This document shows positions 723 through 50,025 of a stretch of DNA of 64,000 nucleotides, piece by piece. The DNA is from an uncultured archaeon. GTDB taxonomy: Archaea > Nanobdellota > Nanobdellia > Pacearchaeales > GW2011-AR1. The first letter of the stretch is position 1, and every line of letters starts with the position of its first letter. Where the stretch lies: assembly GCA_902385655.1 (NCBI GenBank), contig CABMGO010000005.1, positions 99,584 through 163,583 on the forward strand. The letters are read 5' to 3'. Below the pieces are notes generated by a model. The model did no database searches. It had not been told where the DNA came from and saw only the letters and a list, made by a program, of their open reading frames with translations. The position numbers and the translations under genes were made by a program.

Positions 723-819
723 TTTTTTTCTAGAAAAATAAAAAGGATAATTTCAAAAGATAACAATAATCATAAAGAAAAATTTGAAAATTAAAAAGTC
801 TAAAAAAACTAATAACCGC

Positions 820-890
820 GTGCTTTGCACGCAAGTTCAGAAACAAATTTTTTCTTCGAAAAAATTTGACAATTTCCCTTAAAATCCATT
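820..890. repeat. Repeat family E: GCGTGC-TTT-GCACGC hairpin plus a perfect A/T palindrome AAATTTTTTCTTCGAAAAAATTT; second copy at 57340-57410. Putative bidirectional terminator
   Basis: Near-identical ~70-bp segment at both loci; oligo-T on both strands; both downstream of converging or 3' gene ends. Confidence 0.45.
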
Positions 891-1103
891 TTATCCTTAA
901 AGCCAAAACCTAACCGCTCGCGTAAAAAATTTCGCTTTGAATGAACTAAAGTTTATTCGAAAATATTATGGCCTTCATGAAATGCAAAATTTTTTGGAAA
1001 ATTCTTTATTCATAACCCTTAAAAACACCATTTCACATTTAATGATATAAAAGGTGACGAAACTATCAAGCACAAACCATTAATAACAATAATAATTCTG
1101 ACA

Positions 1104-7278: not shown

Positions 7279-7701
7279 ATGGCAAAAGAGGAAGAAAAAA
7301 TTTCAGTTTTCATGTTAAAAGAACACGGACAAATTCTAGCACTTTTAAACAAATTTGATAAATCGAAAAACGCAGAAGACTTCAAAGCGCTAAGAAAGAA
7401 GCAAGAAGATCACATGTTTGCTGAAGAAAAAGCAATTTTTACATTCTACAAAGAAAAAAAGAAATTCCCAGTTTTAGTAACAATAATGGAACAACATGAA
7501 GAATTAGAAGATCAAATGAATATTATAGAGAAAAACCTAAAACAAAATGTTGAAGAATATAAAAAATTAATGAAGGAACATATTATGCTTGAAGATAAAG
7601 AATTCTATCCGAAATTGGACAAAGACTTGAACCCTGCAGAACAAAAAAATATGCTAGCAAAGACAAAAGACTATATTCTGGGCAACATCGGTTTTGCATA
7701 A
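7279..7701 (+). CDS. Hemerythrin HHE cation-binding domain protein
   Basis: Repeated H..xE spacing: EHGQI, HMFAEEKAIF, EQHEELEDQ, EHIMLEDKEFYP. Confidence 0.5.
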   Translation: MAKEEEKISVFMLKEHGQILALLNKFDKSKNAEDFKALRKKQEDHMFAEEKAIFTFYKEKKKFPVLVTIMEQHEELEDQMNIIEKNLKQNVEEYKKLMKEHIMLEDKEFYPKLDKDLNPAEQKNMLAKTKDYILGNIGFA

Positions 7702-7738
7702 TAATTAGCTTAATAAACAACTTCTAAGAAAGAATAAT

Positions 7739-8365
7739 ATGAAACTAGTCAATAAGATTGAAAATTTAAAGAAAGAACCTATCGAAAAAACTATTCGAAA
7801 TAGGGTTAAAGAATTCGAACAAATTTTAAAAGAAAAAGACAAAGAAAAAATTTTTTCAGAGCTATGTTTTTGTCTAATGACTGCAAATTGGCAAGCACAA
7901 AAAGCAATCGAACTTCAAAAAGAACTTGCACAAGACTTCATCAAAGCAAATAAAGAAACTTTAGCAAAAAAACTTAAAGAAAAAGGACACCGATTCTGGC
8001 CACAAAGAGCTGAAGCAATAATCAAAGCAAGAGAACACAAGAATACAATTCATGAACTTGTATTAAAAGAAAAAGATGAAAAGAAAATCAGAGAATGGAT
8101 CGCTGAAAATATCCGTGGACTTGGAATGAAAGAATCTTCTCACTTCCTAAGAAATATCGGTTACAAAAATCTTGCAATTATCGACTTTCACATAGTAGAT
8201 TTGTTAGTAGCTGAAAACATTATTGAACAACCAAAAACAATCACGAAAAAGAAATATCTAGAAATAGAAAATAAACTTGAAGAAATAAGTAAAAAAACAA
8301 AAATCCCACAAGGCGAACTAGACCTTTACTTATGGTACCTCGAAACCGGAAAAGTACTAAAATAA
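7739..8365 (+). CDS. HhH-GPD DNA glycosylase, archaeal Ogg2-like (8-oxoguanine glycosylase/lyase)
   Basis: GLGMKESSHFLRNIGY...AIIDFHI helix-hairpin-helix with catalytic K/D; ~208 aa. Confidence 0.55.
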   Translation: MKLVNKIENLKKEPIEKTIRNRVKEFEQILKEKDKEKIFSELCFCLMTANWQAQKAIELQKELAQDFIKANKETLAKKLKEKGHRFWPQRAEAIIKAREHKNTIHELVLKEKDEKKIREWIAENIRGLGMKESSHFLRNIGYKNLAIIDFHIVDLLVAENIIEQPKTITKKKYLEIENKLEEISKKTKIPQGELDLYLWYLETGKVLK

Positions 8366-20341: not shown

Positions 20342-20424
20342 CTTTTTTCACCTAATTACGAGAAAGAAAACTAGTTTAAATATTTAATCAAAGCGACTCG
20401 ACAGCAAAACTTTCTCATCTAAAA

Positions 20425-20590
20425 ATAGATAACTTTAGAAGATAAAAATAGTTAAAGAAAACTTTGCGATTCCAAAAAGATGGCTAACACAAAATAATTC
20501 ACGGGTGGGTCTTGCCGAAGGCAAATGAGTGGGAAATTTAGAATCGCAAAGTTTTCGACCAAAACCAGACCACTCGCATTCACTCAAAAA
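20425..20590. repeat. Conserved structured element family S, copy 1 (candidate ncRNA or cis-regulatory RNA)
   Basis: Shares GATAACTTTAGAA...GGGYGGG-[hairpin]-AGTGGGARATTAGA-[stem]-AGTTTTCGACCAAAAC with 36085-36258 and 49938-50025; hairpins covary. Confidence 0.5.
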
Positions 20591-21131: not shown

Positions 21132-21264
21132 AGAATCAAATATATTCCAATCTTTTAAAACCTATCTAAAGGAGAGGCCGTGTAGAGGAAAATTTTTCAC
21201 TCTTCTTTGAAAAGTAAATGGTTCCTATTTATGACTAAAATAGACTCGAAGAATAAAAAATTTT

Positions 21265-25066: not shown

Positions 25067-25149
25067 GCCGACATCGCATAGTGGTATTGCATCAGGTTGC
25101 TAACCTGAGCCCTTTACTGGGCCCCAGGGTTCGATTCCCTGTGTCGGCG
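25067..25149 (+). tRNA. tRNA-Ser (anticodon GCU), long variable arm, no encoded CCA
   Basis: Manual fold: acceptor GCCGACA/TGTCGGC, anticodon stem TCAGG/CCTGA with loop TTGCTAA, variable hairpin GCCC..GGGC, T-arm CAGGG-TTCGATT-CCCTG. Confidence 0.85.
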
Positions 25150-25560
25150 TTGAATAGATTGAGCAAAGTGAAATCTATTGAAATCTGATTCTGGAATCGA
25201 ACCTAGGTTCGTATTCCCTGAAAAAATTTCGCTCTTGAGAAATATTTGCGTTAGCAACTAAAGTTGAGAAAAGTACAAGAGCAAAATTTTTTGTGTCGGC
25301 GTTTATGCTATCGAAGAATGAGATAGCAATTATTCTACATGGAATTGAACCCTGGGTTCGACGAATAAAACGCTCCGAGAAAATATTTCTGTCAACTAAA
25401 TTTATTTTCGAGGTACATTTTGTGAGCCTCCCTGTGTCGGCGTTTTTTCTGGCTTCACAAACGTTTCTAAAAATGAAGAGCAGAAAAAACGAAGTCGAGA
25501 TGTGTTTTTTGAAAAAGGTTGCTAACCTGAGCCCTTTACTGGGAATGAAGCGCCTTGATT
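25150..25560 (+). repeat. Tandem degenerate ~145-155-bp repeats; two units end in a 12-15-nt copy of the tRNA-Ser 3' end, and one carries a 28-nt exact copy of the anticodon-stem/variable-arm segment
   Basis: CCCTGTGTCGGCGTT at 25137 and 25434; TGTGTCGGCGTT at 25294; AGGTTGCTAACCTGAGCCCTTTACTGGG at 25095 and 25517; unit-internal hairpin GGAATYGAACC..GGTTCG. Confidence 0.6.
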
Positions 25561-34596: not shown

Positions 34597-35805
34597 TTAA
34601 CCCGTATCGCTAAACACTTCCTGTTCAGGATAAACAACAATTCCTTCAGCAGTTATTTGGGCGGCAACTATTTTCTTTTGATGAGAAACCCCTCGAAGTT
34701 TTAATAACTCGATGGCATTTTCTCTAACATTTCCGTGCTTCAATGCATACAAAACAATTACCCCATCAGCCAAGAACTCCTCTACACCTGTTTGTGAAAA
34801 TATTTTAGGAACTTGTTCTGTTTCAGTAACTAAAAATGAAGTAGCACCAGTTTTTTCCAAGAATCTAAATAATTGTTCAATATAAATACGATAACTATCT
34901 TCTTTCCCAGTAAATGCAGAAGCTATCGCAGTCAAAGAATCAATGACTACAAAATCAGGATGCGCAAAATCCTCAGGCATAATTACTGGATCAACATCAA
35001 TCAATAACTCTCCTTTCTGTTGTGCAAGTAACGCATCAACATTTCTCGTAATATCGAATGGATTCATTCTCTGCAATCTTAATTTTCCTTTTTTAATTAA
35101 TTCCCTAGGATTCCAACCAAAACCTTCCATATGCTCAATCAACCTTTCCTCATTCTCTTCAAAGCTCATATAGAAACATTTTTTTCCTTCTCTTGCCTTG
35201 TTAATTAAAGTCTGTAAACAAAAAATAGTTTTACCACTTCCAGCACCACCAGCAACTAGTACAGAAGAACCAGAGGGAATTCCTTGTTCAAGTAAATCAT
35301 CAAAACCTTTAATTCCAGTTTTCACATAATCTTTCCCTAGCTTTCCAGTTTTTTCCTTAGAACCCTCAAGAACATGAACTAACGGTGCTCTTTTTTCAAA
35401 AATTTCAGCCTCAGATTTTTTTATTTTTCCGCCGCGTAATTTTTCTTCAACTTCTTGTTTAACTTTAGTAGCATCAAATTCTTTTTGTTTAGAAACTTCA
35501 ACTTTCTTATCAGATTTTTTCTTAATATGCTTTTCCTCTAACGAAACTATCTTTGCTTTATCCCCTTGCTCGACAACTTCCTCTTCACCCGCTTTCCAAC
35601 TGTGAAGTTTGGCCATATTAACTTTTCTAACACCAACATGATTTGCTCCAATTAGTCCGTGAAGTCTAGCAAGAACAGTATGTCTCGCTAAACCAGTCAT
35701 TTTCATAATATCGACGATAGAAAGTCCTTCAGGATGACTTTTAAGTAAATCAGAAATCGTAGTCTTCACCTTATCTTTTTCAACTATTACCATAACCTCT
35801 CCCAT
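34597..35805 (-). CDS. Winged-HTH + KaiC/RecA-superfamily ATPase
   Basis: Walker A GGAGSGKT, Walker B FVVIDS, KaiC-like core; N-terminal HTH; start set at MGEV with TATA TTTATAAATAAA 16-27 nt upstream (leaderless). Confidence 0.7.
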   Translation of the reverse strand: MGEVMVIVEKDKVKTTISDLLKSHPEGLSIVDIMKMTGLARHTVLARLHGLIGANHVGVRKVNMAKLHSWKAGEEEVVEQGDKAKIVSLEEKHIKKKSDKKVEVSKQKEFDATKVKQEVEEKLRGGKIKKSEAEIFEKRAPLVHVLEGSKEKTGKLGKDYVKTGIKGFDDLLEQGIPSGSSVLVAGGAGSGKTIFCLQTLINKAREGKKCFYMSFEENEERLIEHMEGFGWNPRELIKKGKLRLQRMNPFDITRNVDALLAQQKGELLIDVDPVIMPEDFAHPDFVVIDSLTAIASAFTGKEDSYRIYIEQLFRFLEKTGATSFLVTETEQVPKIFSQTGVEEFLADGVIVLYALKHGNVRENAIELLKLRGVSHQKKIVAAQITAEGIVVYPEQEVFSDTG

Positions 35806-35820
35806 CAATTTTAAAACACA

Positions 35821-35832
35821 TTTATTTATAAA
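35821..35832 (-). promoter_or_regulatory. TATA box of the leaderless wHTH-KaiC-like gene
   Basis: TTTATAAATAAA ~20 nt upstream of the ATG. Confidence 0.45.
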
Positions 35833-35894
35833 TGTTGCGATATATGACAGTTGTATATGCCTAATAAATAAAACATATGAATTTGACAAGTATA

Positions 35895-36065
35895 TATAAT
35901 AGATATATGTGACATATTAAAAAGATACAAATTTCATTATTTTTACGTGTAAAAAGATATGTGTGACAGATATATATGATATACATATATAATAGATTAA
36001 AAGAACTAGAAGAGGCATATCATATACGAATATGATAGATATATATGATAGATTAAAAGAATGAA
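35895..36065. repeat. AT-rich low-complexity direct repeats (GATATATGTGACA x2; ATAGATTAAAAGAA x2)
   Basis: Visible direct repeats. Confidence 0.45.
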
Positions 36066-36084
36066 AAGTTCATTGATAAATTAA

Positions 36085-36258
36085 AAGGATAATTTTAAAA
36101 GATGATGATGCTGAAGAAATTTTTCAGCTTTCCAAAAGAGTTGGGAAACATAAAACAATTCGAGGGCGGGTTTCGAAGCGTAGCTTCGATAAAGTGGGAG
36201 ATTAGAGAGCTGAAAAGTTTCGACCAAAACAGAGCCATACATGCTCGCGTAAAAAAAT
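36085..36258. repeat. Structured element family S, copy 2
   Basis: Same conserved flanks as copy 1, with different but self-complementary stems (TTTCAGCT/AGCTGAAA; TTCGAAGC-GTA-GCTTCGA). Confidence 0.5.
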
Positions 36259-49826: not shown

Positions 49827-49937
49827 TAACCATTAAACAAAATAACAAATATAAACCTTTCTCCCAAAAATTAAAGATAAAAATATAAAGTAAAATTCCT
49901 AAATTGTGTCAAGAAGAAAAAGTTTATTGACAAACTA

Positions 49938-50025
49938 AACGGATAACTTTAGAAAATAGGGGCGGGCTTTTCTGCGTAGCAGAAAAATTGGGGAGATACT
50001 CAATAAACTTTTTCGACCAAATAAG
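49938..50025. repeat. Structured element family S, copy 3 (compact)
   Basis: GGATAACTTTAGAAAATAGGGGCGGGC-[TTTTCTGC-GTA-GCAGAAAA]-ATTGGGGAGATA...TTTTTCGACCAAA. Confidence 0.5.

Follow-up and report, generated by a model that had tools for sequence, protein, structure and literature searches.

The window, by which we mean the whole stretch of 64,000 nucleotides analysed here, has a G+C content of ~33% and codes for a type IV pilus/archaellum-like ATPase with T2SSF-type membrane partners, as well as for a KaiC-type ATPase, TrpRS, a diadenylate cyclase and a cluster of two-component proteins. The nearest named relatives of the ATPase, TrpRS and KaiC proteins are in Nanoarchaeota, Pacearchaeota and Woesearchaeota MAGs. 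Amid these housekeeping genes, at intervals of 14-16 kb, lie copies of an intergenic hairpin element. A first-pass annotation had reported three copies in a single orientation, and we found all of them in place and on the plus strand: the block GATAAYTTTARAA is exact at 20428, 36088 and 49942, and the block TTTCGACCAAA is exact at 20553, 36218 and 50011. An extended head motif, AAGGATAAYTTYARAAGAT, gave 5 matches with up to three mismatches, against 0.95 expected, and none of 100 shuffles gave 5.

Each copy also lies, as had been described, upstream of a minus-strand gene, ~90-270 nt before the start codon. Copies 1 and 2 are antisense to their flanking genes; the genes on either side of copy 3 are divergent. 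The deposited protein of the KaiC gene (34597-35889, minus strand) has 398 aa, which places the true start near 35793, not at the TTG at 35889; copy 2 is therefore ~270 nt upstream of this gene.

Architecture of the repeated unit

Including a fourth unit, found at a different locus on a metagenome contig of a relative (L005; ATPase 89% identical), the copies follow one architecture in units of ~100-106 nt whose stems differ (Table 1). A unit runs from a lead, AAGAAAA, through a 5' arm of 15-17 nt, a loop (L1), a G block, an inner hairpin and a 3' loop (L2) to a 3' arm with a terminal T-run. The arms form a terminal helix of 15-17 bp with the base GAAA(A).../...(T)TTTC in every unit. L1 is 28-31 nt long and reads CAAA..A-YGGNWAAC-..AAA.., the G block that follows it is (G)GGGYGGG(Y), the inner hairpin has 5-8 bp and a G(U/A)A triloop closed by C-G, and L2 reads ..KKGGGARAU... 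The T-run that ends the 3' arm is T5-T6 in short forms and T3-T4 in long forms (copies 1 and 2). Invariant positions cluster in four G tracts and one AAC; the tracts themselves (GG, GGG, GGG, GGG) are invariant, with spacings of 14-15 and 19-27 nt. The G-quadruplex model of ViennaRNA predicted no quadruplex, loops this long being outside the model's range.

Table 1. Positions of the hairpin element and its parts in the window and in L005. R1, covariance model; c4, possible distant relative.
Feature	Position	Strand	Remarks
Copy 1, long form, full inserted segment (head, unit and tail)	20412-20578 (borders approximate)	+	Missing at orthologous pilin-ATPase sites
Copy 1, head box ATAGATAACTTTAGAAGAT	20425-20443	+	Partial upstream unit; 14 nt before 5' arm
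Copy 1, 5' arm GAAAACTTTGCGATTC	20457-20472	+	Perfect 16-bp pairing with 20541-20556
Copy 1, loop L1 (TGGCTAAC) and G block GGGTGGGT	20473-20510	+	Conserved columns of the alignment of units (A6)
Copy 1, inner hairpin (C)TTGCC-GAA-GGCAA(A)	20511-20525	+	
Copy 1, loop L2 TGAGTGGGAAATTTA and 3' arm GAATCGCAAAGTTTTC	20526-20556	+	
Copy 1, tail GACCAAAAC..CACTCGCA	20557-20578	+	Common to tails of copy 2 and c4
Copy 2, head GAAAAGTTCATTGATAAATTAAAAGGATAATTTTAAAAGAT, partial unit	36057-36107	+	Aligns with copy 3 49913-49958 (nhmmer E=3e-4); head motif exact
Copy 2, unit	36116-36221	+	R1 115 bits
Copy 2, arms	36116-36132 / 36205-36221	+	17 bp including two U.G pairs
Copy 2, L1; G block; L2	36133-36163; 36164-36171; 36191-36204	+	
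Copy 2, inner hairpin	36172-36190	+	7 bp, GTA loop
Copy 2, tail GACCAAAAC..GCTCGCGTAAAAAA	36222-36256	+	14/14 nt identical to window 916-929
A/T box AAAATATAAA	49880-49889	+	27-36 nt before copy 3 unit; candidate TATA box
Copy 3, unit, short form	49916-50014	+	R1 96.3 bits
Copy 3, arms GAAAAAGTTTATTGA / TCAATAAACTTTTTC	49916-49930 / 50000-50014	+	15 bp, perfect
Copy 3, L1 (CGGATAAC); G block; L2	49931-49958; 49959-49967; 49987-49999	+	
Copy 3, inner hairpin	49968-49986	+	8 bp, GTA loop
Copy 3, tail GACCAAATA	50015-50023	+	
L005 unit	L005 11804-11692	minus strand of locus	Found with HMM from copies 1 and 2; outer helix AAAAATTCTTGCAC / GTGCAAGAATTTTT encloses GGATAAC
c4, possible distant relative	743-929	+	Head 743-761, G-less hairpin unit 772-862, tail 903-929

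Copies 1 and 2, which are homologous along ~175 nt, are long forms in which a full unit is preceded by a partial upstream unit, the head, with a GATAAY box. The GATAAYTTTARAA block of the long forms sits in this head and is homologous to the first 46 nt of copy 3; a split nhmmer match likewise joins the head box of copy 1 to the loop-L1 box of copy 3. Within the folded units of copies 1 and 2, the structural counterparts of the GATAAY box are TGGCTAAC and TGGGAAAC, respectively, the box itself lying outside the unit, whereas in copy 3 and the L005 copy it is enclosed by the outer helix. The inner hairpins and outer stems quoted in the first-pass annotation are all present, but two outer stems exceed the stated lengths: that of copy 1 has 16 bp and that of copy 2 has 17 bp. 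The blocks that it described as conserved and single-stranded are exact, but part of one, AGTTTTC, is the 3' arm of the outer stem. It had also overlooked the outer helix of copy 3, which it placed at 49938-50025; we regard copy 3 as complete, not truncated, because its own perfect 15-bp helix encloses the GATAAC box.

Just 3' of the terminal helix, all three window copies (20553-20563, 36218-36228, 50011-50021) read TTTTC-GACCAAA, a stem followed by NCCA that recalls a tRNA acceptor end. We discarded a tRNA half or acceptor end as the identity of the element, as the stem and GACCA tail are not kept in the L005 copy. Protein coding is unlikely because the units share no conserved ORF and the spacings between blocks differ by non-multiples of three; a 24-codon ORF in copy 1 was rejected as a small ORF since it is not kept in copy 2.

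The locus that we call c4, a composite element within 736-930 on the plus strand, has a head, AAGGATAATTTCAAAAGAT, identical to that of copy 2, and likewise a tail, CCAAAAC..GCTCGCGTAAAAAA. Its body differs and is without G blocks, consisting of an outer stem AAGAAAAATTTG / CAAATTTTTTCTT and an inner hairpin GCGTGC-TTT-GCACGC, and it scores 17.2 bits (E 0.19) against the covariance model R1. We assign c4 to the hairpin family only weakly; its make-up suggests modular, mosaic intergenic repeats.

The window holds other repeats. A second palindromic intergenic family is present at 25215-25295, directly after tRNA-Ser, and at 918-1000, directly after c4, with arms AAAAAATTTCGCT... / ...GCAAAATTTTTTG and a shared internal ACTAAAGTT. 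A looser A-run/T-run palindrome lies between pilin-like genes (21189-21264). Just 3' of tRNA-Ser, GGAATCGAACCTAGGTTCGTATTCC (25185-25215) is a palindrome whose two strands both resemble a T arm; it may be a tRNA fragment or what is left of an old attachment site.

Covariation and folding

We aligned the three window units and the L005 unit, N-padded and fitted by hand to the structure. In this hand-fitted alignment of four sequences, standard pairs make up 97.8% of 93 pair cells, and both sides have changed in 16 of 25 pairs. None of 500 column shuffles matched any of five measures, and when the 3' partners were slid by 1-3 columns, pairing was 35-58%. The clearest single case is the inner hairpin of copy 2 compared with that of the L005 copy, a clean swap of G-C to A-U. 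Identity between units is 43-63% in stem columns and 53-75% in unpaired columns, and loops are better conserved than stems in five of the six unit pairs. Against shuffled sequences, each of the four units folds with a z-score of -3.7 to -5.4.

Searching the whole window with Rfam 15 at gathering thresholds returned only tRNA-Ser (25067-25149), and permissive scans of copies 2 and 3 gave chance-level matches of at most 21 bits, against thresholds of 43-91 bits, so that no known family was matched. The compensatory stem variation proposed in the first-pass annotation is upheld by the formal pair count, and covariation, fold scores and the lack of an Rfam match support its view of a structured element as opposed to a plain duplex site for protein binding. 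At the level of sequence, these data support selection on the pairing.

Paired stems could act in RNA or in DNA. We tentatively favour, at somewhat less than even confidence, a family of small structured RNAs, independently transcribed from the plus strand and turning over between intergenic sites. The main rival, which we consider unlikely, is a non-autonomous MITE-like or palindrome-associated DNA element moved by an enzyme encoded elsewhere. There, the hairpin or cruciform would form in single-stranded or supercoiled DNA, the loops would be the recognition sites of the enzyme, and the stems would need only to pair. Stems that differ on a common architecture, loops better conserved than stems, covariation far above the slid controls and the folding scores all speak for the RNA, the covariation with the restriction that it comes from only four units in an alignment fitted to the structure. 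Against mobile DNA, the divergence of the stems goes far beyond that expected of recent copy-and-paste.

Both strands of the units fold well, which weakens the case for RNA, but the plus strand is the more stable in all four units (-33.2/-23.0, -28.1/-22.9, -24.5/-23.1 and -29.2/-28.7 kcal/mol for plus/minus), with a clear margin for copy 2 and the L005 copy. All three G.U pairs fall on the plus strand, again in favour of RNA; two are within the terminal helix of copy 2, where the internal U.G pairs would be A.C mismatches on the opposite strand, a point against mobile DNA. Three of the four terminal helices, on the other hand, are perfect Watson-Crick palindromes with hardly any G.U, as would be equally expected of DNA palindromes or young duplications.

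Occurrence in relatives and relation to neighbouring genes

In the 64-kb window, R1 found exactly the three window units, at 92-115 bits and on the plus strand, and in 152 kb from relatives it found only the L005 unit, at 89.7 bits. Nothing else in either set exceeded ~24 bits, a specificity that fits a defined RNA family. Strong BLAST, HMM and covariance-model matches in the window were confined to the three known loci, and the pattern YGGNWAAC-N9-16-GGGYGGG occurs in the four units only (216 kb, both strands). On further copies, which the first-pass annotation had named as a point that could count against the element, the result is divided: there is one, that in L005, and there were none in large pattern scans with an over-strict pattern. 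Genome and metagenome contigs scanned with TTGGTCGAAAN{8,24}ATYTCCCN{16,34}CCCRCCC yielded chance matches only, a weak negative, as the pattern demanded the TTTCGACCAAA tail, which is absent from the L005 copy, the sole copy found outside the window, and which thus proved peculiar to the genome of the window. The chance matches were on unrelated contigs of 40-73% GC, those among genome contigs being bacterial, and viral contigs gave unrelated sequences only.

At orthologous sites in relatives, the element comes and goes. The copy 1 segment is missing at the pilin-ATPase site in L024 (92% ATPase identity), L005 (89%), L006-8 (87%) and L152 (79%), where the ATPase starts 30-125 nt after the pilin-like gene. 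Copies 2 and 3 are without an orthologue in L148-150 and L025-27: copy 2 is absent upstream of KaiC in L148/L149 (83%) and L150 (78%), and upstream of TrpRS, L025 (88%) and L026/27 (84%) have 71-104 nt that are not syntenic and contain no copy 3. Conversely, the L005 copy is a clean 177-nt insertion relative to window 7701-7739, and the window is without it. By these comparisons of sequence, the hairpin family undergoes turnover among intergenic locations; at this level of divergence, not every site allows an insertion to be distinguished from a loss.

Presence and absence in both directions, copy 1 missing in four relatives and the L005 copy carried in its insertion, would also be expected of mobile DNA. 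So would the one chromosomal orientation shared by the window copies and, in the syntenic frame, the L005 copy, the partial or mosaic copies (the heads, and c4, in which a shared head and tail flank another body) and the co-occurrence of long and short forms. Yet the one cleanly resolved junction, that in L005 (ATAA, 177 nt, TAATTA), has no duplication of 3 bp or more and hence no evident target-site duplication; the junctions of copy 1 are not placeable to the nucleotide. Nor are terminal repeats conserved among copies, the GAAA/TTTC base alone being common, and the 30 ORFs around and between the copies that we scanned with Pfam, about half of the window's ORFs, include no transposase, integrase or HUH/Y1 gene. 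The small-RNA reading accommodates the non-syntenic sites and the inconstant orientation towards genes as those of a self-contained unit.

The region upstream of the KaiC-type ATPase carries AT-rich palindromic repeats of its own, TATGATAGATATATAT... and TGTGTGATAGGCACATATCACACA, at window 35960-36075, L148 9800-9835 and L150 5000-5030, kept in relatives without copy 2. They are a candidate operator of the KaiC-type gene, independent of the hairpin element. With these repeats adjoining, the string TTCCA...TGGGAAAC...GGGCGGG in copy 2 recalls archaeal ORB elements. We rejected an ORB or origin because the AT-rich region is kept upstream of KaiC in relatives without the element and because three origins in 30 kb are implausible.

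In the first-pass annotation, regulation of the minus-strand genes by a leader had been offered as one possibility. Such a cis-acting device (leader, riboswitch or attenuator) for the pilus ATPase, KaiC-type ATPase and TrpRS genes would suit the position of the window copies ahead of their start codons, but we hold it to be very improbable. We reject this role because the orientation of the element to flanking genes is inconstant and because the gene next to copy 1 has a promoter of its own downstream of the copy. The L005 copy has the same orientation as its flanking genes, opposite to that of copies 1 and 2 towards the downstream gene. Between copy 1 and the ATG of the ATPase, at 20376-20394 on the minus strand, a promoter-like box, TTTGATTAAATATTTAAAC, is kept with single-base differences in all three relatives read (L005, L006, L024), all of them without the element at this site; it adjoins the preceding stop codon directly in two relatives and after a 32-nt spacer in the third. 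Further points against a leader are that the three genes have no functional relation, that no copy precedes the orthologous ATPase, KaiC and TrpRS genes examined in relatives (proteins 78-92% identical), and that the minus strand folds more weakly for copy 2 and the L005 copy. As an aside, TTTGATTAAATATTTAAAC conveniently illustrates, within the window, how a BRE/TATA region looks in this lineage.

The neighbouring genes also bear on a reading, in our estimate quite unlikely, in which the element is a structured intergenic terminator or insulator made of an A-run, a long palindrome and a T-run, with oligo-T 3' of the hairpin on both strands. By analogy, it would stop or stabilise the transcripts of its neighbours, as ERIC or bcr1 act on mRNA ends. 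Copies 1 and 2 do begin 10-30 nt past the stop codons of the preceding minus-strand genes, the GAAA(A)...(T)TTTC helix base is conserved in all units, and unrelated A-run/T-run palindromes occupy other intergenic regions (25221-25292, 924-995, 21189-21264). However, such a role would leave ~45 nt of conserved loop sequence and the invariant G tracts unexplained, copy 3 lies where no terminator is needed, the same gene junctions exist in relatives without the element, and oligo-T suffices for archaeal transcription termination. We also rejected insertion into a pre-existing terminator hairpin, the empty sites of relatives being without one.

Known systems and a proposed role

By analogy, the closest described counterparts of the hairpin element are transcribed intergenic palindromic repeats such as bcr1, with ERIC and Correia elements similar. 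bcr1, from the Bacillus cereus group, is an intergenic repeat of non-conserved distribution with compensatory changes that keep the RNA fold and with 5-bp direct repeats (PMC3184786); Correia elements measure ~104 to 157 bp (PMC3184786, Table 1). Like bcr1 and the ERIC/IRU repeats of enterobacteria, our element is an imperfect intergenic palindrome of ~100-160 nt whose fold is kept by compensatory changes, patchy in relatives and variable in length. The differences are that bcr1 has many copies, similar arms and 5-bp flanking direct repeats, whereas here no flanking repeat is seen, arms are largely unrelated while loops are conserved, there are three copies in 64 kb, and the host is of DPANN type. 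As judged from sequence, unrelated arms with conserved loops, low copy number and an archaeal host set the family apart from known repeats.

With the Correia elements of Neisseria (CREE/NEMIS) and other MITEs, the hairpin element has in common that it is small, intergenic, hairpin-forming and polymorphic for insertion. Correia elements exist in a long and a short version, distinguished by an internal segment, and some can act as promoters or terminators. What defines a MITE family is that its terminal inverted repeats are conserved and that its copies are flanked by target-site duplications, which for Correia are TA. Here, stem columns are 43-63% identical with only the GAAA/TTTC base common. 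We do not regard the family as a classical MITE, on the grounds of unconserved terminal repeats and no visible target duplication at the one resolved junction.

A parallel to the mobile-DNA reading is offered by attC sites and IS200/IS605 ends, where recognition loops are conserved and stems are just paired. attC sites resemble our units in having short conserved boxes and self-complementary stems that differ per copy, in a length of about 60-140 nt and in a structure read on one strand, and integrons are reported in Nanoarchaeota-type archaea. The hairpin element differs in being without RYYYAAC / GTTRRRY boxes, its helix base being GAAA.../...TTTC. We dismissed an integron attC because R''/R' boxes and a cassette array are absent, the ORFs that we scanned include no integrase, and 14-16 kb separate the copies.

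Among RNAs, Y-RNA-like and 6S-like molecules offer the same outline: they measure ~100 nt, a long helix joins their two ends, and the helices vary around a sizeable conserved internal loop that would bind a partner. This is a resemblance in shape alone, as neither sequence nor covariance models link the element to Rfam. Other candidates fell away. The aligned units have no conserved RUGAUGA/CUGA boxes of a C/D guide (ATGATGA/CTGA is in the copy 2 head only) and no boxes of an H/ACA guide, with snoRNA-type Rfam matches not above chance; GA/AG pairs of a K-turn are absent beside both helices; and hammerhead, twister and HDV-like ribozymes gave no Rfam signal at E<10. CGGAUAA...GGGGCGG bears some resemblance to a twister sequence but is missing a C-rich pairing partner here. 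A retron or DGR part was rejected for want of a reverse transcriptase in the scanned ORFs and because copy differences are not adenine-specific, and a solitary CRISPR repeat was considered and dropped.

Collectively, the element most likely represents a family of small RNAs or mobile repeats that is new and confined to one lineage, and not a leader of neighbouring genes. Under the small-RNA reading, RNA genes would duplicate into, and vanish from, the intergenic DNA of one Nanoarchaeota/DPANN-type group. The terminal helix and apical hairpin would hold a large asymmetric internal loop open, and we propose this loop, with its invariant G tracts (YGG in YGGNWAAC, GGG-Y-GGG, GGG in KKGGGARAU), as the functional surface because invariant positions concentrate in the G tracts and the AAC. 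It would most likely be a binding platform for a protein or a C/U-rich nucleic acid, and possibly a long-loop G-quadruplex. The helices would drift by compensatory change because only their pairing matters.

The T-run after the terminal helix (T3 to T6) would serve as a terminator that shields the 3' end, and an A/T-rich box ~25-35 nt before the 5' arm would be the promoter, a part played by the head in long forms. TATA-like boxes do precede the short forms, AAAATATAAA in copy 3 and the similar AAAATATGAA at an equal upstream distance in L005 (AAAATATRAA), and copies 1, 2 and c4 have the conserved head at a fixed 12-nt spacer from AARGAAA; the head box of copy 1 is, we infer, a candidate BRE/TATA promoter. 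Against this stand the weak T-run of the long forms (T4, T3) and a head box that the RNA would include in short forms and exclude in long forms, a difference that a single promoter model does not easily accommodate. We infer transcription, the active strand, the promoter and terminator roles and binding by the loop, all but the last in A/T-rich DNA where TATA-like strings are common. Also unfavourable to this small-RNA reading, the rest of the window contains no sequence complementary to the arms and loops.

A bolder version, to which we give little credence, would make the family an undescribed class of archaeal RNA in the form of a compact mobile 'RNA gene cassette' of ~150 nt with its own promoter and terminator, its G-tract loop acting as a sponge or decoy or as a G-quadruplex. 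If true, such cassettes would spread between DPANN intergenic sites, and the loop would titrate an RNA-binding protein or C/U-rich RNA while the helices stayed free to vary.

With four units from two related genomes, we regard the hairpin element as a lead, not a discovery. DPANN archaea have tiny genomes with scant non-coding DNA, and to our knowledge almost no non-coding RNAs have been described in them beyond the universal ones. The element would represent one of two things, a new small RNA that works with a cellular partner or the trace of a mobilisation machinery that reads folded nucleic acid, and either outcome would add to the sparse list of archaeal structured RNAs or MITE-like repeats.
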